Origin: Oligoflexales bacterium | Lineage (GTDB): Bacteria; Bdellovibrionota_B; Oligoflexia; Oligoflexales; Bog-1112 | NCBI GenBank assembly: GCA_045106415.1 | Contig: JBGCEP010000008.1 | Span: 1-40,659 of the forward strand | Direction of reading: 5' to 3' | Length of the DNA stretch: 40,659 nt | Part shown: positions 218-32,760 of the stretch, piece by piece | How the letters are laid out: each line of letters starts with the position of its first letter | Position numbering within the stretch: position 1 is the stretch's first letter | Notes under the pieces: generated by a model | Told to the model about the DNA's origin: nothing | What the model saw: the letters and a program-made list of their open reading frames with translations, nothing else | The model's database searches: none | Position numbers and translations under genes: made by a program

Positions 218-1050
218 ACAACTGCATTCTCTGCTCGCCATTATAGAATGATGCAGCCACCTTAAGAAAAAAGCGGCCTCATGATTCGAGTTCATAAAAT
301 TGCTTTAAATCCCAATAATAAACAAAGATCTTTCTTTGCAAAATCTGCAGAGATAGCTCGTTTTTCTTATAATTGAGGGACTTAAGCCGTTGGAAAGAAC
401 TCTATGAACTTGGTTTGGTGAAAGACCAAACGAGATGGGTTTACGCAAAGAGCTCAATACTATAAAAAAACTACAAAGATTTCAGCGTATCTGCAGTCGC
501 TGCAAAAACAGCTCTCGCAACAGACAAAAGATCAAAGAGAAACTGCAAAGATGTCATGCTGGCATCGCTGGCATACGCCAAGGCACCTTCCATGAACTCA
601 TGTTTCACCTTACTGATGCGTATGGTTGTATTGTTATTGAAGATCTTCACGTTAAAGGAATGACGAAGAACTCAAAACTGGCAACGTCTATATCAGATGT
701 GGTTTTTTATGAGCTTAGAAGACAATTCGAATACAAAGCGAAGATGAAAGGGCCTCAGGTTGTGACTATAGACTGTTTCTTTCATTCAACAAAGCTGTGC
801 TCATAGTTTTTGACTCGATATGACATTCAACTGCCTCAAATATTTTTGACATGCACAAACTGCTTTTCGCAGCATGATAGAGATATCAACGCTGCTTTAA
901 ATTTAAAGATGACCTTAAGCTGCGCGGTGTCAGTTTGTGGAGAAGAAAGCTCTGGCTTTTCTCATATGAGAACAATAAAACTATCTTCGTTGAAGAAAAA
1001 ATTTGATTTTAAATCTGCGTAGGTAGATCTAAGTAAATTCACAACAGCGA
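218..1050 (+). mobile_element. Decayed IS607-family element (tnpA C-terminal stub + tnpB pseudogene + right end)
   Basis: 218-284 reads TTAFSARHYRM/CSHLKKKAAS* (1-nt frameshift), resembling the IS607 serine-recombinase C-terminus ITVFSARLYG.RSHK; its TGA overlaps the tnpB ATG (ATGA 281-284); right boundary approximate. Confidence 0.7.
281..1022 (+). pseudogene. tnpB: TnpB (RNA-guided nuclease) pseudogene
   Basis: N-terminal MIRVHKIALNPNNKQRSFFAKSAEIARFSYN* (TGA 374-376 where W is expected), frameshifts, RuvC-II IVIEDLHVKGM, STKLCS*, Zn finger CTNC, RuvC-III HDRDINAALNL, tail AVSVCGEESSG; RuvC-I/WED segment missing. Confidence 0.9.
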
Positions 1051-20579: not shown

Positions 20580-21278
20580 TTATGAAGGCTCTGTCCTCTT
20601 CTGGGACGGAGCTTTTTTACGTGTTGCTTTCTTTTTTCGACCACCACTCGACGGAGCTTTCTCCATAATAGGAACACGCTTTTTTTGACTTGTCTGCTTT
20701 GTATAAGGTTTTGAATTTTCTCCAGTTGTTTTTTTTCGAAAACTTTTCTTTTTTCCTGCGCTCTCTTGACGAGAATTTTTAACTGGAGTCGATGGGTCTT
20801 TTTTATGATTTCCAGTTTTTTTCACAAAGGATTTCTTCTTCTCATCACTTTGTGATCCTTCCTTCATACTCTTCTCTAGGCTGTCGTCAGTGGATTCTAC
20901 TGAACTCACACCAGAGTCAACAATCAGAAACTGTAACATTTTAGGGCATACCCATATCACTTGAGACCTTTGTTTAAGACAGCCTATCATACAAAAGCGA
21001 TGATAAATTGGACCAAGTACTCCAAGATGGCGACCTTTCCACCCTATATTCTGGCGCGCAACCCAACCCGAAAGAGCTCTTTGCGATATACCGTACACAC
21101 CTGTTTTTACATTCTTTTTCATACGTCCAGATCGGATGATTTTAAGCCACAATGTAAAAAGACCAACCCATGACACAAAGTCGAGTTCAACACCTTCTGA
21201 ATCAATGCGGATTCCCCGAATCGATAGGCGCCAACGAAAATCACGGCTTGATGGCCAAACTTTATCTTGAACCCACAT
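20580..21278 (-). CDS. Hypothetical protein with Lys/Ser-rich basic C-terminal half
   Basis: GGAGGA RBS before ATG 21278; globular N-terminal half, low-complexity tail. Confidence 0.65.
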   Translation of the reverse strand: MWVQDKVWPSSRDFRWRLSIRGIRIDSEGVELDFVSWVGLFTLWLKIIRSGRMKKNVKTGVYGISQRALSGWVARQNIGWKGRHLGVLGPIYHRFCMIGCLKQRSQVIWVCPKMLQFLIVDSGVSSVESTDDSLEKSMKEGSQSDEKKKSFVKKTGNHKKDPSTPVKNSRQESAGKKKSFRKKTTGENSKPYTKQTSQKKRVPIMEKAPSSGGRKKKATRKKAPSQKRTEPS

Positions 21279-21547
21279 AGTCTTTCCTCCAGATACATCT
21301 CTCATCGGGTTGATTTTATCGTCATAAAACAAATGATGGCATAAATATTTTAACCTACAATATTTATAAGTTGTTACATTACCCACAAAATCATTTTTCA
21401 TTAAAAAATAAAAGTTGTACATCAAACATTTAAACCAGATTTCACACTCACTGAATAGACTTGATGTTCAAAAAATAATCATGTTAACCTCCTGCAATAG
21501 CAAGATAGGTAACATCGATAAGATCTAATGATAAAAACGAGTTTTTT

Positions 21548-22612
21548 ATGAAACCTTACATCCAAGCTTTTATTTGTCTGTTCCTATGGAGCTTTAAGAT
21601 TTACAGTGCTCCTGCGCTCAGAAAAATACTCGCCACTCAAGATATTTCCATTGAAAAAAAAGACCGAGCTATTTTTTTCATAAAAAAGCTCCAATCGACA
21701 CAACTCACAGCAGCATCGACAACAAGTAGACGTGTTGAAAAAAAAACAGTCATACCTGAAGCAGTGTTAAAGAGCGCTCTTCAAAATCTTTATGCCCATC
21801 CCGAGGCCAAATTTTCACGAAGAGACCAACTACAAGCAGGTGAGACAAATAAAACATTTACCTTTTATGGCGCTTCCGTTGCTTTCCGGCAAAAAAATCT
21901 AAAAACAAAGATAAAGCTACGAGCACGATTTTACTTGAAGATCGATAAAAATGGGAACACTCTACGCTCTCAACCAGGGCATGGTTTTTTAGAGCTTAAA
22001 ATTAAAAATCCTTTACCTGGTCAAAGAGGGGTCCATAAATATAGAATCAAGCTACGTGATGACCTCATCTTTCAAGTTTTCACAAACCCGGCCTATACTG
22101 ACGAATTTCAGTTAGCTCTTCAAAATATTAAGGAAAGCCTTTCCCCTTCCTCTAAAGAATACCAGACAGCACTTATTATGTTAGAGGCTACCGAATATTT
22201 TTCTAATATTGACTCACGTTTTTCTCAGCCCGTCCTAGGGGTTTCATACACAAGAGATTCCTACCAGCAAGATATCCTTTCACACAACGTTCAAATCACA
22301 CTCGATCGCAATGTACAAGCTTACCTTCCTTACCAAATCAATCACTTAAATACATTTGACGATTATCTCTTTGAAGAGGCGGCAAAAGATCTCACACACA
22401 CTTACCCTAGTGATATTGTGGTTCTTGAACTCAAAGAGCCCATGCAAATAAGCTTGAAAAAAACTTTTAAAAAAGACTCTCTTCTAGAAAGACTTCGACT
22501 CTTCAGACAACATGCCTTCTGCCGCGCTTACGTTTCTTCTGGCTTTGACATCGAAAGAAACAGAGGCAAAGCTGGGACCATCCGAAACCTGCTCTATGAA
22601 AAATATTTATAA
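21548..22612 (+). CDS. VTC/CYTH (triphosphate tunnel, polyphosphate-polymerase-domain) protein with signal peptide
   Basis: RRVEKK, KLRARFY, FLELKIK, KYRIKL, P...VSYTR.SY, QITLDRNV, VVLELKEP; hydrophobic N-terminus ending IYSA. Confidence 0.7.
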   Translation: MKPYIQAFICLFLWSFKIYSAPALRKILATQDISIEKKDRAIFFIKKLQSTQLTAASTTSRRVEKKTVIPEAVLKSALQNLYAHPEAKFSRRDQLQAGETNKTFTFYGASVAFRQKNLKTKIKLRARFYLKIDKNGNTLRSQPGHGFLELKIKNPLPGQRGVHKYRIKLRDDLIFQVFTNPAYTDEFQLALQNIKESLSPSSKEYQTALIMLEATEYFSNIDSRFSQPVLGVSYTRDSYQQDILSHNVQITLDRNVQAYLPYQINHLNTFDDYLFEEAAKDLTHTYPSDIVVLELKEPMQISLKKTFKKDSLLERLRLFRQHAFCRAYVSSGFDIERNRGKAGTIRNLLYEKYL

Positions 22613-22814
22613 AAACACATCACAGTACGTTTTCAGACTCCAAGACCTCTAAAAAAAATACGGCACTATGAATGCGCTCATTTCACCCGCTTCTCATACA
22701 GCCCAAAAATCACAACAGCCCTTCCAAACAACAAATCACCAAATCAAATAGCAATTCCTCACTGGATTGTGTTTTATAGAAAAGCGATTCACAATAATAG
22801 AAAAGGAGAAATTT

Positions 22815-23225
22815 ATGAATAACTTTTGGAAAAAATGTGGACCATGTGGAAAAGAGATTACACATCAAACAGCTTACTTTGCTTGTGGCACAAGCAGTTG
22901 CCAAAAATCCGCATTCTGTTCACTCAGCTGTTGGAATGCACACATACCACTAATGAAGCATAAAGACGCTTGGGCTGAAGAACGCATTTCTCCCGGACTC
23001 AATGACACCCGAGATCAGAACACCCAAATCAAATCAACTGATGTTTTGGTAGTTGCATCTAAACTAAAGGCATACATCAAAGAAAGCTCTGGCTTAAATA
23101 CTTCAGCAAGCGCTCTCACTCGTCTTTCAGATATTATTCGTTTGCAATCTGACAAAGCGATGAAAAATGCAAAAAATGAAGGACGCAAAACAGTCCTCGA
23201 TCGGGATTTTTTAAACCCACAATAA
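22815..23225 (+). CDS. Bacterial histone-fold protein with N-terminal Cys/His zinc-finger domain (ZZ-histone/Bd3044-like)
   Basis: RBS AAGGAG; N-terminal CGPC..C...SC....FCSLSCWNAH; C-terminal DVLVVASKLKAYIKESSGLNTSASAL..LS...AKNEGRKTVLDRDF histone fold. Confidence 0.9.
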   Translation: MNNFWKKCGPCGKEITHQTAYFACGTSSCQKSAFCSLSCWNAHIPLMKHKDAWAEERISPGLNDTRDQNTQIKSTDVLVVASKLKAYIKESSGLNTSASALTRLSDIIRLQSDKAMKNAKNEGRKTVLDRDFLNPQ

Positions 23226-23257
23226 CGAGGACTGTCCAACTTCAAAATATTCCCAAG

Positions 23258-26215
23258 TTAAAAAAATGAGAACTTTGCTCGTGAGCTGCTGTAACCTGAG
23301 TCTTCTAGAATTTCAATAATTTCTAGGTTGGTTTTCAACCACTCTTTGAAAGGCTCACTTACTTTATCTGGTGAGGCACGACGCACACTCAATCCTGTTT
23401 CTCCAACATGTTCACGAAGCTGTGAAGCAATATCACGGCGCATGGCATCAAGATGAAGGAATATGGATTCTTTTCCAACTTTATCACTATCCAGCCCTAA
23501 AGGTGAACTCAATAAAGTTGCTGCTTCAAGACGAGTCTTGGCATCAAAAATATAATCTTGCAACATCACCTTTGGTTTTTTTGTCTCTGAAATAAACACA
23601 ACACCTACGAGTTGATTCTTCCTAGCATCACTTCTAGAAGATAGGACAAACTCAGATAAGCTGGTGATTGCCTCAACAAGCTCATCACACCCTTCCTCAA
23701 TCTCCATATAGGAAGACACTTCATTCACTCTTGCTAAGGTTTGATAAACAACCTCTTTGGCAAGTCTTAGAAGGTCTTTAGATATGTTTTTCTTAATGAA
23801 GGCACGCTCTTCTTGAGAAAATGTAACTTTCCGTCCATCGGCAGCTGTAAAATCACGATTCGTATCTTCAAATAGCTTTTCTACAACTTTATTCACATCG
23901 GCTTTTAAATCAGATGGCCATTGAACTTCATGCGAAGGAACATCGTCGATTTTTTCAACGTTCTCACCATGCTCTTCATCAACTTCTCCATCTGAAAGTT
24001 GGTCAAATCCTTTTTTCCATTCTGAGTCTGATTTCAAGGAGCTTTCTAAGAGACTTTTTAAGGATATCGATCCTAAGTCAATACTCACTTCAGAGCCTTC
24101 AGCATCAACGGATCCTTGGTAATCACCGTCTTCTTCATAAGGAGCGACTCCTTCAACTGGTAGACCTGTCGCCCTTACAATCGCAAATAAAGATTTAACA
24201 ACTCCACCGATGTCTCGAAATTGTTTTTTCAGCCAATCTTTTTTGTACTTTTCTATCGCTTTTGGGTCACCATGAAGCTTCACAAGGTCATCATGATTCT
24301 GAAGATTTCTCCACCCTGAGTTCGTCATCCATGACAGAGCGATATCCAAAGGTCCTAAAAGACGATCCACAATTTTACTCACAGGAATCCGAACATCTTG
24401 GACTCTTTTTTGGTCTTCAGACGTCTCAGAGGTTCCTGCCTTACCACGTATATATGGCTCTACAAGCCAAGAAGCAAGATTCTTAAGATCATTTCTCTGG
24501 TCATAATGAACATCAGCAAGTGGATTAGCAAAAGTTCTCCAAGGACCGCAATCAGCAAATTTTTGAGCTTGAGCATCAGAGCAATAAGCTAACTCAACAC
24601 TAGGATCACACTCTTTCCAGCTTGCATCATAGCCCCATTCAATTGCTTTTTGATCATAATGCAACAATTCGCGTCTTTGAATTTTTTGCCCTATTAAGAC
24701 ACTCACTTCAAAGTTTGAGTAATGCATCACAGAAGAAGCAAGTTCAGGAATTTCTACAGACTCACCGCTTAAGTAGTTTTGGTATAGATTTTCCAGCTCT
24801 TTTGGTGTCACTTTGTTTTCTAAGTGCGCAGCAAAGTTATGTCGAAGACCCATTGTATGACCGACTTCATGAGCCACAACTGAAGCAACGTAATCTTGCG
24901 CAACACGCAGTGCAAGTTCATTTGCTAGACTGTCAGGCATACTGGTTAATGTTTGTTGAAGACCAGGTAAGAATTGATGAAATTTATGACTTTGTTGGCA
25001 CATAGAATTTGTATGCGCATCTTCTTCAGAAGCGTTTGAAGAAAATGATTGAGGGCATTTCAAAGATTGAAGGCGCCTTCTATTTTTTCTTTCTTCGGGT
25101 GTAAAGTCTTCATCCATCTCATCCGCATTAACTTGTGTATTTAAAATAGCACGGACTCTTTGCAACGATCCAAATGCAAACGCTGATGTTAAAAATACCT
25201 GCGCATGATGAATTTCACCACTTAGAGGGTCAGCTAAGACATCTGCATAAGCAAAACCCGCTTTATCCCAACGCACCCATTCAATCAAATTGTAATCAGG
25301 ATGAGGAGCTTGAATACCTTCTGGAGCGTCAACAACTTCGACAACTTCTCTTCCAAAAGCTTCATTCCAATATAAAATACCACGACGAACAGCTTCTCTA
25401 TACTCATCTGGAATTTTATGTGACAACGCATAAACGATCGTTTTTTGATGATTCCATTTTAAAACATGACCAAATGGAGTGCCATCATGCCGTTTAATTT
25501 GAGAGTGTGTTTCAAAGTAGCCAACTTTTTTAAATTGTCCACCTTTTCTCTGTTGAAAAGCTTGAGAATCAGTACGAGTCCTCTTTCTCTTCTTTTTCGT
25601 TAAATGGTTATCATCACCTTCAAGGCGTTTTAGAAAAAAACGTTCTTGGATAGGGACCTGTGCCAAAATACGCATATTCATTTTGACATCTTTCACGAAA
25701 CGATCAACAACAACTTCCTGTGCATCTTGTGAAAGAATCACATGGCTGACCCACGGTAAGATTTGAGGCTGTTGAATCGTGTACCCATGAAAAGAACGAC
25801 CTTTTTCATCTGGAGCATCGTACCACGCCTCTAGTTCACCCCCAAAGCCCTCTGAAGCCAAACGAATATAAATAGCATCATTGCTTTCATCTAAAATACG
25901 AAAACGTGCGAGCAATGTTTTCGCATCATCATGGTCAACACTCTGACCATCTGCAGCCTGAAACATCAACAAACTGCTGTATCCATCTAAAACAAGGCAA
26001 GAGTCATCTTTTTCAAAATACACTCGATAAGACTTCTTCGATTCAAACATCGGCGCAGAGCGCTGCTGAATAGCAGTCATATGCAGGACATAAGAATGGC
26101 CGCTTTCTATATCAGCAGCAGGTAAACCAATAGATTTCTGCGCTGTGTTGATAGTCAAGACATGAGCCTGAGCAACTGGCAACAAAAGCAACGCACAGAG
26201 CAACAAACGAACCAT
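23258..26215 (-). CDS. Secreted zinc-dependent metalloprotease (metzincin, DUF4953/EcxA-like)
   Basis: Signal peptide ...AQA; GILYWNEAF, DPLSGEI..A, HEVGHTMGLRHNF, Met-turn SSVMHY, YD..AI.WGY. Confidence 0.9.
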   Translation of the reverse strand: MVRLLLCALLLLPVAQAHVLTINTAQKSIGLPAADIESGHSYVLHMTAIQQRSAPMFESKKSYRVYFEKDDSCLVLDGYSSLLMFQAADGQSVDHDDAKTLLARFRILDESNDAIYIRLASEGFGGELEAWYDAPDEKGRSFHGYTIQQPQILPWVSHVILSQDAQEVVVDRFVKDVKMNMRILAQVPIQERFFLKRLEGDDNHLTKKKRKRTRTDSQAFQQRKGGQFKKVGYFETHSQIKRHDGTPFGHVLKWNHQKTIVYALSHKIPDEYREAVRRGILYWNEAFGREVVEVVDAPEGIQAPHPDYNLIEWVRWDKAGFAYADVLADPLSGEIHHAQVFLTSAFAFGSLQRVRAILNTQVNADEMDEDFTPEERKNRRRLQSLKCPQSFSSNASEEDAHTNSMCQQSHKFHQFLPGLQQTLTSMPDSLANELALRVAQDYVASVVAHEVGHTMGLRHNFAAHLENKVTPKELENLYQNYLSGESVEIPELASSVMHYSNFEVSVLIGQKIQRRELLHYDQKAIEWGYDASWKECDPSVELAYCSDAQAQKFADCGPWRTFANPLADVHYDQRNDLKNLASWLVEPYIRGKAGTSETSEDQKRVQDVRIPVSKIVDRLLGPLDIALSWMTNSGWRNLQNHDDLVKLHGDPKAIEKYKKDWLKKQFRDIGGVVKSLFAIVRATGLPVEGVAPYEEDGDYQGSVDAEGSEVSIDLGSISLKSLLESSLKSDSEWKKGFDQLSDGEVDEEHGENVEKIDDVPSHEVQWPSDLKADVNKVVEKLFEDTNRDFTAADGRKVTFSQEERAFIKKNISKDLLRLAKEVVYQTLARVNEVSSYMEIEEGCDELVEAITSLSEFVLSSRSDARKNQLVGVVFISETKKPKVMLQDYIFDAKTRLEAATLLSSPLGLDSDKVGKESIFLHLDAMRRDIASQLREHVGETGLSVRRASPDKVSEPFKEWLKTNLEIIEILEDSGYSSSRAKFSFF

Positions 26216-27719: not shown

Positions 27720-30700
27720 TTATAAATCCGCTGCGGGCAAAGAATCCCCCATTTCGGAAGCTCCGTCACCTTTGTGGACTCCTCCGTCTCCAGTTCCTAG
27801 TTTTCCATAGTCATTATTACCCCAGCATTTCACCGTATGATTGTCGAGAAGAGCGCAAGCCGCTTCTACACCTAATTCAACTTGTGTAGCATGGCGTCCT
27901 GTTCCTAAATCAATAGCTGATAAGTTATCGCCCATTTCCCCTGCGTCATCGCCGATTCTATCCGTATTTCCTTTTCCTAATTGACCGTAGTTATTCTCTC
28001 CCCAGCACTTCAAATCATTATTATCAAGAATGGCACAAATAAAATAATCCCCTACAGAAACTTGAGATACGGTTCGACCCACTCCTAAATCAATGACCGC
28101 TAAACTATCTCCCATTTCCCCTGCACCATCGCCGTGATCCTCTGAAGAGGCATTTCCTAACTGACCCTGAAACCCTTCTCCCCAACATTTTAAATCAGCA
28201 TTATCAAGAATAGCGCAAGTATTGTATCCTCCTGCGCTTATAGAAACAGGGGTTCTTCCTGTTCCTAGATCAATAGCGGCTAAGTTATCGCCCATCTCTG
28301 ATGCTGCGTCCCCTGTCTGGGAATCAATTTCTTGACCGACAGCACCATGCGGACCATATCCCCAACATTTCATGTCACTATTATCCAAAACAGCGCATGT
28401 ATGTAAAAATCCTGCTACTATTTTTGTTGCTGTTCGACCTGTGCCAAGTTCTGCATATGCAAGGGAATCCCCCATTTCCCCTGCGCCATCACCGATATTA
28501 TTTGTTGAGCCAATGCCTAGCTGTCCTGCGTTGTTGCGTCCCCAACACTTCACTTTCCCATTGTCTAAAATAGCGCAGTGATGTTGAAGACCTGACGCAA
28601 TATCAACTGCCGTTCGAGCAGTTCCTAAATTGACAGAAGCAAGAGAGTCTCCCATCTCACCTGGAGAGTTGCCAATACTGACTGAGTTCGATTCATTACC
28701 TAGTTGCCCTAAATATTCTGTTCCCCAGCATTTGACAATCCCATTATCTAAAACAGCGCAGCTACTATGATCTGCTGTTGCAATTTTGGTAATGCTACGT
28801 CCTGTGCCTAAATCGACAAAAGGTAAATTGGTACCCATTTCAGATGAGCCATCTCCAGCGTGACTTCCGCTACCTATACCTGCTTGCCCATTTTCATTTC
28901 TCCCCCAGCATTTAAGACTGTTGTCAGAAAAAATGCCACAAAATGTCGATCCTATAGCTTTTTGCAAGGTTGATATTGTTCTTGCTGTAAAACCATCACC
29001 GTTGGATACGACCCCAATATTTCCTGCTGTATCAGTTGCTCGGATTGTAGCGTAATAAGTCAAACCTTCAGTAAGATCCAAACCCGTTAATGTAATTGAA
29101 GTCACAAGACCAACGTTTTGCCAAGTAAGAGTGTTTATCGCACCTGAAGAGGTACCAAGGGCAACTTCATAATAAGCGACTCCTGATGTTGCATCACTGC
29201 TTGCACTCCATGACATTGCAGGGCTGACTTCAGAGTTTAAGTTAAAGGCTCCGTCAACAAAAGACCCTGGTGCAGACGGAGCGACGTTATCATGAAGAAT
29301 TGTATCCGAAACACAACTGGATTCATTCCCTGCTTCGTCCTTAAACTGAGCGTAAACTGTTGCCGTTGCATTTGTTTGAGCTAAGGACCAACCTGTTTTC
29401 GTTGTTGAGTATGCTTCCCAGCTTCCACCTGAGCCACATGCTGCAGTGTTTGTCACAAGCATCTCACTTGCATCTACAGCTGAAGGCGATAAAGCAACCG
29501 TTGTACTGATCGATGTTGCAGCCCCACTTGATATTGTTAAAGAAGGTGATAAAGGTGCGATATTATCGTGCACGATCGTATCGTTGATACAAGTTGATGT
29601 ATTTCCAGCTTCATCTTTGAATTTGACGTAAACGGTTGCTGTTGCATTTGTTTGTCCTAAACTCCAACCCGCTTTCGATGTTGCATAACTTTCCCAACTT
29701 CCATCTGCAGCACAGCCTGAAGTATTAGTCACATACATCTCCGATGCACCAGCTGCACTTAGTGTTAAATCAGGTGTTTCATCTGCTATATGTGTTCCAC
29801 CATCAATAGCAATGGAATGACTCGAAGGAGCTAGTGAATCATGTGTAATAGAATCATTGATACAGTTCGATTCATTACCAGCTTCATCCTTAAACTTCAC
29901 ATAAACTGTTGCTAAGGCATTCGTTTGACCTAAAGACCAACCTGCTTTCGATGTCGCATAACTCTCCCAAGAGCCGTCAGCACCACAACCTGCTGTATTT
30001 GTCACATACATCTCACTTGCACCAACAGCTGAAAGAGTGAGGTCAGGAGTACTATCGGATGTGTGTGTACCTGCACTAAAAATAATAGAAACACTGGATG
30101 GAGCTATCGAATCATGAGTCACCGTATCATTCACACAGCTTGATTCATTACCAGCTTCATCCTTGAACTTAACATAGACTGTCGTTAACGCGTTTGTTTG
30201 GCTTAAAGTCCACGATAACTTTGACACACCATAATTTTCCCAAGTTCCATCGCTATTACACCCAGCTGTATTTGTCACATACATTGCTGTTGCATCAGTT
30301 GCACTCAAAGTAAGATTGGGGGATGTTTCAGAAATAAAGTCTCCCCCATCAATCACAAGTGACGGAGACTGAGGAGCAACACTGTCATGTAACACAGCAT
30401 CAGAGATACAGTTCGTTTCGTTCAAAGCAACATCTCGGAATTTAGCATACAGTGTATTCGATTGATTTGAGTTTGGCAGCGTCACGCTCTTAGAAGTTTG
30501 ATACTCTTCCCAGTTTCCACCTATGCTACAGCTGGAATCTTCTGTTATATACACTTCAGATGCATCACTAACATCAAAATTAAATGTTGTATTTAGAAAT
30601 GAAACAACTCCGGCACCAGAAGCAAGGTTAGCTTGATTAATAACTGGTTTTGTGACGTCAACTGTATAAGATAAACTCACCTGACTACAGTTACCAGGAG

Positions 30701-32030
30701 CATCAGATTTTGACATTTTTGCATAAAAAACATGAGGCCCTTCCGTCAATGTCGGGAGAGACATTTGAATTGTTTGAGTTGTTGCTGTACCTGAAACCAA
30801 AAGGTTCCCACAAGTTTGATCACTATAAATTCCGACAACCGCTCCAGATTCAACACCGTCAACTTGAAGAACCGGTCTCAATTCAGAAGAGTTTGACAAC
30901 ACAGGAGAAACAAGGCTTAAACCTGTCGGTGCAGATAAGTCTGTCAATAGAGTGTATGATAAATAAGAACGCGAACACGCCCCAAGGCCACCATGACTAT
31001 TTTCCGCACGGGCATAAAATTGATAAGCCCCCACTTTACTTAGCCTAGGACTCAATGAAAGAGCTCCACCTACTGACGCTTGTAATGAAACCAAAGCGTC
31101 TCCATCACAATTTTCATTTGTATACACAGAAACGATATCTCCTGCTAATACAGGCTCTAAAGAAAGAACGGGTGTTGCACTTAAGCCAGCAGACTTTTCA
31201 GTTGTTATCCCCGTGATTTCTTGCGCTCCTAAAATAAAAGTACCTACAAGATTTGTCGGCTTAAAACAAATAGATTGGTCTCTCAGCTCTCCTGTATAAA
31301 GAGTTCTTGTTTTATTCCAATCTAAGAAAGTCATAGTAGTAACATTGGACGATTTCAAATCCCAGCATAGGTCAATATCTTTACTTAACCACTCTGACAC
31401 CTCTTGTCCAGAATCGTCTAAAACGCCACCTTGCATGACACCTTTTTTTTCTGCGTCTTCCACAAAATAAATCTGATCCGCTTTCACTGTCGACGAATCA
31501 TAAGTCATCTTCAGTGTGCCATTTATAAAATCTTTTTCAAAAACAAGCGCTTCTCCCAATTGAGTTTTTTCTTCAAATACAACTGAAAAAAGACCTGGAA
31601 GTGATTGTGTTTGTATGCAAATTTTTCCAGCACTTTGTACTCCATCCACCTCAGTACTATCACTCCCATCAAGGGCACTAATTTTTACTTTCGACGCATC
31701 TAAAGTGCTTTCTGAAATATTAAGACAAACTTTAACGTCTTTGTTTATTTTTGGTGTCGAAGTCTGTTCACTTCGAGCAGTAATAATAAGAGCATATTCA
31801 CCTGTATCTTTTACATCAAACATCACTGGTGATTCAAAAGTTCCTTCTAATACATTCACAGAACCATTTAAAGTTTCTACAGTAACTTCTTCTGTATGTG
31901 GTATGATTTTTGATTCGCTAGCATTTTTCACACCAACTTCAACACCGTTCAGAGATCTCGTGCTAGAAACCTTTTCTCCTTCGCAAGACAGAAGACTCCA
32001 CACAACAATTAAGGTTTGAATAAACTTCAT
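27720..32030 (-). CDS. Large surface lipoprotein: Ig-like repeat stalk, FN3-like domain and C-terminal RCC1/BLIP-II beta-propeller
   Basis: Lipobox LLSC after MKFIQ (ATG 32030, GGGGG RBS); tandem ~91-aa repeats; WSASSD..SGV..YEV (FN3-like); seven CWG..GQ.G repeats. Confidence 0.88.
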   Translation of the reverse strand: MKFIQTLIVVWSLLSCEGEKVSSTRSLNGVEVGVKNASESKIIPHTEEVTVETLNGSVNVLEGTFESPVMFDVKDTGEYALIITARSEQTSTPKINKDVKVCLNISESTLDASKVKISALDGSDSTEVDGVQSAGKICIQTQSLPGLFSVVFEEKTQLGEALVFEKDFINGTLKMTYDSSTVKADQIYFVEDAEKKGVMQGGVLDDSGQEVSEWLSKDIDLCWDLKSSNVTTMTFLDWNKTRTLYTGELRDQSICFKPTNLVGTFILGAQEITGITTEKSAGLSATPVLSLEPVLAGDIVSVYTNENCDGDALVSLQASVGGALSLSPRLSKVGAYQFYARAENSHGGLGACSRSYLSYTLLTDLSAPTGLSLVSPVLSNSSELRPVLQVDGVESGAVVGIYSDQTCGNLLVSGTATTQTIQMSLPTLTEGPHVFYAKMSKSDAPGNCSQVSLSYTVDVTKPVINQANLASGAGVVSFLNTTFNFDVSDASEVYITEDSSCSIGGNWEEYQTSKSVTLPNSNQSNTLYAKFRDVALNETNCISDAVLHDSVAPQSPSLVIDGGDFISETSPNLTLSATDATAMYVTNTAGCNSDGTWENYGVSKLSWTLSQTNALTTVYVKFKDEAGNESSCVNDTVTHDSIAPSSVSIIFSAGTHTSDSTPDLTLSAVGASEMYVTNTAGCGADGSWESYATSKAGWSLGQTNALATVYVKFKDEAGNESNCINDSITHDSLAPSSHSIAIDGGTHIADETPDLTLSAAGASEMYVTNTSGCAADGSWESYATSKAGWSLGQTNATATVYVKFKDEAGNTSTCINDTIVHDNIAPLSPSLTISSGAATSISTTVALSPSAVDASEMLVTNTAACGSGGSWEAYSTTKTGWSLAQTNATATVYAQFKDEAGNESSCVSDTILHDNVAPSAPGSFVDGAFNLNSEVSPAMSWSASSDATSGVAYYEVALGTSSGAINTLTWQNVGLVTSITLTGLDLTEGLTYYATIRATDTAGNIGVVSNGDGFTARTISTLQKAIGSTFCGIFSDNSLKCWGRNENGQAGIGSGSHAGDGSSEMGTNLPFVDLGTGRSITKIATADHSSCAVLDNGIVKCWGTEYLGQLGNESNSVSIGNSPGEMGDSLASVNLGTARTAVDIASGLQHHCAILDNGKVKCWGRNNAGQLGIGSTNNIGDGAGEMGDSLAYAELGTGRTATKIVAGFLHTCAVLDNSDMKCWGYGPHGAVGQEIDSQTGDAASEMGDNLAAIDLGTGRTPVSISAGGYNTCAILDNADLKCWGEGFQGQLGNASSEDHGDGAGEMGDSLAVIDLGVGRTVSQVSVGDYFICAILDNNDLKCWGENNYGQLGKGNTDRIGDDAGEMGDNLSAIDLGTGRHATQVELGVEAACALLDNHTVKCWGNNDYGKLGTGDGGVHKGDGASEMGDSLPAADL
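27725..28965 (-). repeat. Seven ~180-bp RCC1/BLIP-II-like coding repeats
   Basis: CA.LDN...KCWG....GQLG....GD...EMGD.L...DLG.GR units; CWG codons near 28902, 28723, 28540, 28360, 28180, 28000, 27820. Confidence 0.9.
29275..30620 (-). repeat. Five ~273-bp (91-aa) Ig-like coding repeats
   Basis: ASEMYVTNTAGC...G.WE.Y...W.L.QTNA..TVYVKFKDEAGN.S.C..D...HD..AP; TCACATACAT recurs at ~273-bp spacing. Confidence 0.9.
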
Positions 32031-32061
32031 ACTGCCCCCTGTCGATGATTCATACTTAGGC

Positions 32062-32089
32062 TGTTCGGATTCTAATTTAAAAAAGTTAA
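32062..32089 (-). promoter_or_regulatory. sigma28/FliA-like promoter
   Basis: TTAA-N16-TCCGAACA about 32 nt upstream of ATG 32030. Confidence 0.45.
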
Positions 32090-32760
32090 ATTTTTTTAAA
32101 CAAATATAGAAATGATAATTCCCCACAATATTCCCTCTATAACCATTTAAAAATAAAGGTGAATATTCTCATTCAGATAATTTTTATTCTACAAACAATA
32201 TCAATCTATATCCGAACCCAGATTTAAAAAACAAAAATACCGAGACAGACATGCTTATATAATCGATGCCGATCCGTTCAAAGTAACCTTCTTTTAATTT
32301 TATTTTCGCTTAATAATCCCAGGGTCGAGACAAATTTGATCGTCACTTTGGTTTGATAAAGAGATTGAATTCAGTTTAAAAGATAATAAATCTCTAATGG
32401 CCTAGGGTTGCAGACAATATTTGATTCTTCAGCTATCTAAAATAGACTTAATTTTTTTATGATCATTTCACACACCTAAGAATCAGAATGACACGAAGTT
32501 GTTTGATTTTTTTACAGCGTTGTAAAATATGAAGAGGATGAATTCTATCGCAATAATGAAAAAATGTCACAAACACGAGCTCAAAATTCACTATTAATTA
32601 AGGATATTTAAGAAAAAAGAAGAGAATTAAAAAATCGCCACTTTAGTCATAATTAATGTCGGACATCAAGATATCTTTTAAAAAACATTAGAGAAATTTA
32701 TTGAATATGCGAATATCATTCGTTCTACACACATAAAATAAAACATTTAAAAAATACTTC

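Follow-up and report, generated by a model that had tools for sequence, protein, structure and literature searches.

The 136-residue protein P0001, encoded in the 40,659-nucleotide stretch of DNA that was analysed (the window), is by its sequence a ZZ histone of the Bd3044 type, and its combination of a zinc finger with a histone fold lies far beyond chance. P0001 probably functions as a homodimeric, DNA-bending histone resembling HBb, in which two-zinc fingers may serve as accessories that tune contacts with flanking DNA and for which no singlet partner is needed. Bacterial histones have been recognised only recently. The architecture is already known, as the ZZ histone family was described and named by Schwab et al. 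(2024), and P0001 makes for a solid annotation, not a discovery; the known picture of bacterial histones is unchanged by it. What is new here is a genome in which no singlet was found, a predicted homodimer, nine of ten DNA contacts kept, a basic finger exclusive to the histone, the shortest linker and an apparently damaged paralogue. A genome with a ZZ histone as the only histone type found argues that such a protein acts alone. The zinc domain is basic and has no other partner domain, and it therefore seems to have evolved as part of the histone. With its very short linker, P0001 lends itself well to structural and biochemical studies.

The features discussed below are collected in Table 1. 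A longer frame is available from a TTG at 22767, which is an unlikely start because the relatives of P0001 begin 4–7 residues ahead of the conserved Trp5, and comparison with these relatives identifies the ATG as the start. In a promoter and terminator scan of 22500–23400, sites were no commoner than in shuffled sequence, and none was found upstream of the ZZ histone gene. The motifs quoted in a preliminary description of this DNA are all present in the translation: C8-x2-C11, C24-x4-C29, C35-x3-C39, His43 and His49 in the N-terminal part, VLVVASKLKAYIK...NTS at residues 77–97 and GRKTVLDRD at residues 123–131. The stretch 23040–23210 singled out there corresponds to residues 76–132.

Table 1. 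Positions of the features in the window and on contig C68 (locus L096) of the same assembly.
Feature	Position	Strand	Basis or remark
Candidate Shine-Dalgarno sequence GGAG	22805..22808	+	6 bases 5' of the ATG; read directly from the sequence
ZZ histone CDS, protein P0001, 136 aa	22815..23225	+	ATG at 22815, TAA stop at 23223-23225; ORF list and translation
Putative cross-braced two-zinc finger (ZZ-like), residues 1-60	22815..22994	+	Invariant ligands, AF2 domain model
Predicted disordered linker, residues 61-75, 15 aa	22995..23039	+	pLDDT <50 at residues 66-72
HBb/Bd0055-type histone fold with shortened helix 3, residues 76-136	23040..23222	+	phmmer, Foldseek, predicted homodimer
Candidate ORF, 281 aa	20580-21425	-	Basic Lys/Ser-rich C-terminal tail KKKSF..KKT..GRKKKATRKKAPSQKR
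VTC-domain protein, 354 aa	21548-22612	+	PF09359 E 2.6e-9; upstream of the ZZ histone gene
Met-zincin, 985 aa, HEVGH motif	23258-26215	-	DUF4953 E 2.8e-15
RCC1-repeat protein, 1,468 aa, with bacterial Ig-like domain	27720-32126	-	PF13540 E 9.2e-50; WD40_RLD E 5.8e-53
Second ZZ histone gene, P0002, 143 aa	C68 (L096) 320-751	-	67-69% identical to P0001
ORF, 454 aa, lipoprotein-like N-terminus	L096 797-2161	-	No family match; between VTC fragment and P0002 gene
3' end fragment of a VTC-gene paralogue	L096 2221-2448	-	Lies upstream of the P0002 gene
Second repeat	L096 2475-2615		98-100% identical on C64 and C3; 82-91% on C30 and C14

The C-terminal ∼57 residues had been likened to the Bdellovibrio histone Bd0055 (HBb), and both sequence and structure comparison bear this out. 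A phmmer search of 177,635 PDB sequences aligns residues 75–133 with HBb as the top match (8cmp_A, E 3e-8; 8fvx_A, E 3.4e-8); HLp of Leptospira (9qt0_A, E 1.1e-5) and the archaeal HmvA (E 0.0032) rank after it. The top Foldseek chains are likewise HBb, with an E value of 8.8e-4, a target TM score of 0.81, an r.m.s.d. of 2.1 and 45% identity for 9ezz_A; HTkC and HLp come next. Across the HBb entries (8cmp, 8fvx, 9ezz and 9f0e) the fold is 45–47% identical at target TM scores of 0.76–0.81. An AF2 model of full-length P0001, computed from 113 aligned relatives, has a mean pLDDT of 84.4 and a pTM of 0.48. In it the fold covers residues 76–133 with the three helices of a histone, namely helix 1 (82–92), helix 2 (98–121) and a third helix that is shortened to a single turn (129–132). 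Neither Pfam nor NCBIfam yields anything past its cut-off for whole P0001: CBFD_NFYB_HMF (PF00808) is absent at E ≤ 10, and archaea_histone (NF043032) scores 19.3 bits against a cut-off of 50. By sequence these two profiles are too distant, and the assignment as a histone fold stems instead from the PDB matches.

P0001 shares with HBb the single-turn helix 3, the RD clamp (Arg124/Asp131), the KT motif (Lys125/Thr126) and a predicted dimer; clamp and motif lie within the pattern R124-x-T126-x4-D131. HBb differs in being a stand-alone protein of ∼60 residues that is abundant and probably essential (PMC11390915, PMC10627809), whereas P0001 has 75 additional N-terminal residues, and a conserved zinc domain fills the first 60 of its 136 residues. 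The fold domain is thus predicted to work like HBb, with P0001 itself outside the singlet class; it is of the bacterial-dimer-like α3 type that is found at the C-terminus of ZZ histones. Leptospira HLp, an FtF histone (9qt0/9qt1), also has an α3-type fold (target TM score 0.84, 44% identity) but is described as a DNA-wrapping tetramer (PMC12701072). Residues for dimer–dimer contacts are described by Schwab et al. as absent from bacterial dimer histones (PMC11390915).

Two copies of residues 73–136, modelled with a 113-row alignment, are predicted to pair with ipSAE values of 0.75, 0.76 and 0.75, compared with 0.00 for the best of three controls. The partner pLDDT is 88 and the runs agree in at least 95% of contacts. 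Of the proteins used in calibration, 20 of 30 with a structure solved as a pair scored this high, compared with one of 23 solved as single chains. The contacts of lowest error join residues 94–97 to residues 125–128, that is, loop 1 of one chain to loop 2 of the other, as in the histone handshake. The prediction counts as a likeness to HBb, as it may come from the model's memory of solved HBb dimer structures.

The residues through which such a dimer would grip DNA are largely those of HBb. The main contacts listed for HBb are Asn22, Arg57, Ser9, Thr53, Thr8, Ser24, Lys10, Lys12, Lys52 and Lys16 (Hu et al., 2024; PMC11317129). When the residues named in that paper are carried over through the phmmer alignment with an offset of +73, nine of the ten are identical in P0001 (Ser82, Lys83, Lys85, Lys89, Asn95, Ser97, Lys125, Thr126 and Arg130). 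The single change is Thr8 of HBb to Ala81, and Ala is the consensus of the ZZ family at this position (VVASK). The clamp residues Arg51 and Asp58 of HBb map to Arg124 and Asp131, and the interface residues Val11, Leu31, Ile35 and Ile59 map to Leu84, Leu104, Ile108 and Phe132, which are kept in kind as hydrophobic residues. A predicted dimer and retained DNA-backbone contacts are thus found together in P0001, as in HBb.

ZZ histones, as Schwab et al. describe them (2024, Nat Commun; PMC11390915), combine a ZZ-type finger at the N-terminus, which has a C4 site and a C2H2 site, with a C-terminal bacterial-dimer-like fold. Examples are B. bacteriovorus Bd3044 and Haliangium ochraceum D0LYE7. Hocher et al. 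(2023) describe Bd3044 as longer and less conserved and as present in 37% of Bdellovibrionota genomes (PMC10627809). The preliminary remark that this architecture had been noted before is thus confirmed by both papers. According to a 2025 preprint, transcript levels of bd0055 and bd3044 are highest towards the end of the growth phase (10.1101/2025.09.24.678257). Our literature searches brought up no study of what ZZ histones do.

P0001 is homologous to this architecture over its full length. A search at E ≤ 0.001 gives 348 homologous protein clusters; the best 120 mostly cover 94–100% of P0001, and 118 of these 120 carry both the finger and the fold motifs. The closest proteins outside its own genome are 50–53% identical among the matches listed. 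Among species-representative genomes, in records titled Bdellovibrionota, Myxococcota or Binatia, at least 576 of at least 595 candidate stretches were confirmed to encode a ZZ histone. In a language-model atlas the nearest clusters are labelled 'hypothetical protein', and their commonest phylum is Bdellovibrionota or Myxococcota.

The N-terminal ∼60 residues contain eight putative zinc ligands, Cys8, Cys11, Cys24, Cys29, Cys35, Cys39, His43 and His49, which would suffice for the two zinc ions suggested earlier. All eight are invariant in the 55 aligned N-terminal domains (from 54 related loci and the window); among 113 full-length relatives six are invariant and the other two are conserved in at least 90%. 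By analogy with D0LYE7, as presented in PMC11390915, each chain would hold the two ions in a cross-brace, with a C4 site formed by Cys8, Cys11, Cys35 and Cys39 and a C2H2 site formed by Cys24, Cys29, His43 and His49. These are the two kinds of site that mark the N-terminal domain of ZZ histones. The spacing in long-loop relatives, C-x2-C-x12-C-x4-C-x9-C-x3-C-x3-H-x5-H, fits seven of the eight D0LYE7 ligands at the positions printed in that paper, with which alone the comparison was made (C20, C23, C36, C41, C51, H59 and H65; the remaining one is printed as C53 and falls on C55 by spacing). P0001 is without the four-residue insert between the fourth and fifth Cys, as are 45% of the 55 sequences.

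Modelled alone, the zinc domain has a pLDDT of 91.3 and a pTM of 0.73. The first nine Foldseek neighbours of this model are ZZ domains of p62 and HERC2, although the best match (5yph) is weak, with an E value of 0.26 and a probability of 0.85; Ada2, the MYND domain of SMYD2 and ZMYND8 follow. In an exhaustive VIA-align comparison with 48,161 chains, ranks 1–11 are titled Nbr1, RSC, Ada2/SAGA, EP300, BIG, HERC2, p62 and CPEB1, again with weak scores (Z 4.9–4.2), and TRASH, B-box, RING and U-box folds come next at Z 3.3–3.9. MYND, TRASH, B-box and RING folds are thus within 1–1.5 Z units of the ZZ domains. A Pfam search with the 55 zinc domains gives no significant family. PF00569 (ZZ) is not among the 25 families listed of 28; below threshold, 24 of the 55 domains match zf-FLZ and 16 match zf-MYND. 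Run against PDB sequences, a zinc-domain profile stays at chance level (cytochrome c3, E 0.033, through a CxxC...C stretch; ZMYM5, E 1.7). 'ZZ-like cross-brace' is therefore the best description that the model affords, consistent but statistically weak. Of the earlier PHD/ZZ-like label, the two-zinc, ZZ-like part stands, with ZZ domains as the top neighbours; the likeness to ZZ domains proper is weak.

The finger appears to belong to the histone. Of 1.84 billion proteins searched with its profile, 301 representatives match at E ≤ 0.001. The matches listed number 149 without the query, of which 69 have a histone fold and 80 do not, most of the latter being short pieces. Five of the 18 longer fold-less matches hit a Pfam family in their C-terminal part, each a different one and each once (YceG, T2SSG, Cupin_2, EI24 and MerR-DNA-bind). 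Real fusions of the finger to other domains were considered and dropped; these partner fragments are unrelated and non-recurring, and were read as chimeric or broken gene calls. Among the matches listed, the profile thus points to a finger that recurs with no domain other than the histone fold.

The finger is also basic. Its net charge is above zero in 51 of the 55 domains, with a median of +3, and Lys or Arg occurs in at least 70% of them at columns 6, 7, 12, 13, 31 and 50; the conserved acidic columns are 41, 55 and 56. The first zinc knuckle of the family reads [KR][KR]-C-[SG]-x-C-K-K. P0001 has Gly12 in place of the nearly invariant Lys (93%) that follows the first CxxC in other ZZ histones, and Asn41 where its relatives have Asp or Glu (78%), and its knuckle is therefore less basic than the family norm.

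The assembly that contains the window (2.95 Mb, 89 contigs, 93.8% complete) was searched for a Bd0055-type singlet with the full protein, with the fold alone and with NF043032. No singlet was found, and the two loci that were recovered are both ZZ-fused. When 47,793 six-frame ORFs were scanned without filters (hmmsearch --max) with a profile built from 11 metagenomic singlets, again only the two ZZ-fused genes matched (E 8.4e-28 and 2.9e-26; next ORF 0.18). The ZZ histone appears to be the only histone type in this genome, which also encodes four HU/IHF-family proteins. A singlet gene of ∼200 bases could sit in an assembly gap, given a completeness of 93.8% and 89 contigs. One of 15 other genomes of the same taxonomic family (G009) has a ZZ relative, an intact 138-residue gene with 51% identity. 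Among 104 genomes of the phylum that are at least 85% complete, three have a ZZ histone (G000, which is the assembly of the window, G009 and G085), 24 have a singlet and none shows both. This mutual exclusion is only suggestive, because it comes from three cases and the number of co-occurrences expected by chance is ∼0.7.

The linker was described earlier as short, ∼15 residues, and this holds. It is the shortest among the 118 relatives with both motifs from the best 120 of the 348 matches, for which the median is 43. If one counts instead from the final His up to where helix 1 begins, the distance in these 118 relatives has a minimum of 28, a median of 56 and a maximum of 102. A short R-[RKL]-[IV]-[VLA] motif (PRRRIV, ARLV) was noticed by eye in the linkers of many of the relatives P0003–P0120; P0001 is without it.

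In our preferred model, two P0001 chains would pair through the handshake of their C-terminal folds, loop 1 of one against loop 2 of the other, into a dimer resembling HBb of Bdellovibrio. As with HBb, contacts to the DNA backbone would lie at the minor groove and come from the opening turn of helix 1, from loop 1, from the KT motif of loop 2 and from Arg130, with no sequence preference, and the dimer would bend the DNA rather than wrap it. That P0001 is such a sequence-independent, homodimeric bender is well supported by its homology to HBb, and that each chain carries a two-zinc finger we infer from the ligands. The 15 disordered residues would tether each finger to the DNA-touching end of helix 1. 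There the finger could serve the histone as a dedicated accessory, adding or tuning flanking-DNA contacts, and not as a reader of peptide tails. We read it as an accessory because it is net basic, Lys and Arg flank its first knuckle, it has no other partner domain and its tether is short. The full-length model does not fix the orientation of the finger relative to the fold, and the contact between finger and DNA, which follows from charge and tether length only, is therefore put forward tentatively. P0001 would work in its host without a singlet partner. The ZZ histone of B. bacteriovorus is reported to have low expression and abundance (PMC11390915) and apparently is not readily able to make up for Bd0055 loss (PMC10627809), which argues against a bulk architectural role.

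It is also conceivable, if rather unlikely, that in this lineage a ZZ histone suffices by itself as the only histone, and that the two closely tethered basic fingers of the homodimer clamp the DNA on both sides of the fold as a 'histone with arms'. This would be a distinct mode of DNA binding and not an accessory variant of HBb. The 15-residue linker would then be the most rigid natural form, the best suited to a structure with DNA, and the mutual exclusion of ZZ histone and singlet in the phylum sample would reflect functional replacement.

The eukaryotic ZZ domains of p300, HERC2, ZZZ3 and p62 bind histone H3 tails or N-degrons. A true reader built on the same lines, which would recruit the fold dimer to another protein (a further histone or a nucleoid protein) by binding that protein's basic tail or free N-terminus, is in our view improbable for P0001. 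The finger does resemble eukaryotic ZZ domains (p62/SQSTM1, HERC2, p300/CBP, ZZZ3, Nbr1, Ada2 and CPEB1) in its predicted cross-braced two-zinc fold of ∼50–60 residues, and these domains are its top structural neighbours. A conserved acidic stretch, A-W-A-E-E at residues 52–56 after the last His (Glu55 in 76%, Glu56 in 91%), also counts in favour of a reader. However, the structural scores given above are all weak and the sequence match is not significant. The first knuckle of the P0001 family is basic rather than acidic: none of the 55 zinc domains has Asp or Glu directly after the first Cys, beside which we take the acidic pocket position of eukaryotic ZZ domains to lie. The 'reader-like' label used earlier is thus not supported here, provided that the pocket position is as assumed. 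Schwab et al. also report that the eukaryotic ZZ pocket residues are not conserved in ZZ histones and that a second histone is encoded in only 50% of ZZ-histone proteomes (PMC11390915). In the present genome no other histone was found that could serve as a target.

No conserved neighbouring gene hints at a partner for a reader either. Five of the six window neighbours that were compared occur in none of 80 related loci, and the sixth, a cyclophilin, occurs in two; all-against-all clustering of 1,463 flanking ORFs gives no neighbour family in more than 11 of the 80. An operon partner was dropped as an explanation because the neighbourhood is not conserved across these loci. The VTC gene adjoins the ZZ histone gene in none of the 80. 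The Met-zincin ORF is convergent with the ZZ histone gene and ends 32 bases beyond it. The 281-residue ORF at 20580–21425 has no Pfam or NCBIfam match and no relative in 15 genomes of the same taxonomic family.

Alternatively, the Cys-rich zinc domain might be a zinc or redox switch that unfolds on oxidation or zinc loss and alters DNA binding, making P0001 a scarce, stress-responsive regulator and not a packaging protein. The presence of six Cys and two His within 42 residues, all invariant, would fit such a switch, as would the low abundance reported for the Bdellovibrio member (PMC11390915) and a gene that stands alone with no conserved operon. Invariant ligands are, however, equally expected for a purely structural zinc site, and there are no redox genes nearby in the window; we regard a switch as quite improbable.

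The earlier suggestion that the protein heterodimerises with a Bd0055-type histone, which would make it a variant subunit lending the abundant singlet a zinc-finger appendage, is very improbable here: interfaces are probably compatible, because the fold is 45–47% identical to HBb and 58–68% identical to the 11 metagenomic singlets, and B. bacteriovorus encodes both types (PMC10627809), but neither the three queries nor the six-frame profile scan found a singlet in this genome, the homodimer is confidently predicted, and the three ZZ-bearing genomes of the phylum are without a singlet just as the 24 singlet-bearing ones are without a ZZ histone, numbers too few for a test.

The second ZZ histone of the genome, P0002, is encoded on a 2,615-base contig (C68) and is probably the product of a damaged duplicate. 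P0002 tracks P0001 as far as GRKTVL and then reads SWYFEDLLRNKC. It is without equivalents of Asp129, Arg130, Asp131 and Phe132, and with them lacks one of the main DNA contacts, the Asp of the clamp and one residue of the interface. The similarity to P0001 breaks off at the edge of an IS-like repeat (C68 140–359), whose sequence takes the place of these last fold residues and which has copies of 94% and 92% identity on C13 and C39 and of 80% and 71% on C11 and C31. The copy on C13 gives a sub-threshold match to a transposase family (DUF772, E 2.9e-4, 21.2 bits where the cut-off is 23.1). In Logan run X1, possibly the source sample itself and hence not independent, a 1,011-base contig of depth 6.8 extends from position 330, 30 bases inside the repeat, through the P0002 gene; the repeat itself has a depth of ∼55 in this run. 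The contig is compatible with a real junction between P0002 and the repeat, at one base under the 31-base bridging rule.

The fragment of a VTC paralogue upstream of P0002 indicates that a segment comprising the VTC and ZZ genes was duplicated and that one copy was later damaged. The 454-residue ORF of C68 is without a counterpart between the VTC and ZZ genes of the window. Mis-binning of C68 was considered, and there is no sign of it: the GC content is 0.395 compared with 0.398 for the genome, and the tetranucleotide correlation is 0.928 compared with a mean of 0.903 for random 2.6 kb chunks, although a 2.6 kb contig is not placeable with certainty. The second repeat on C68 probably explains why the contig ends there.
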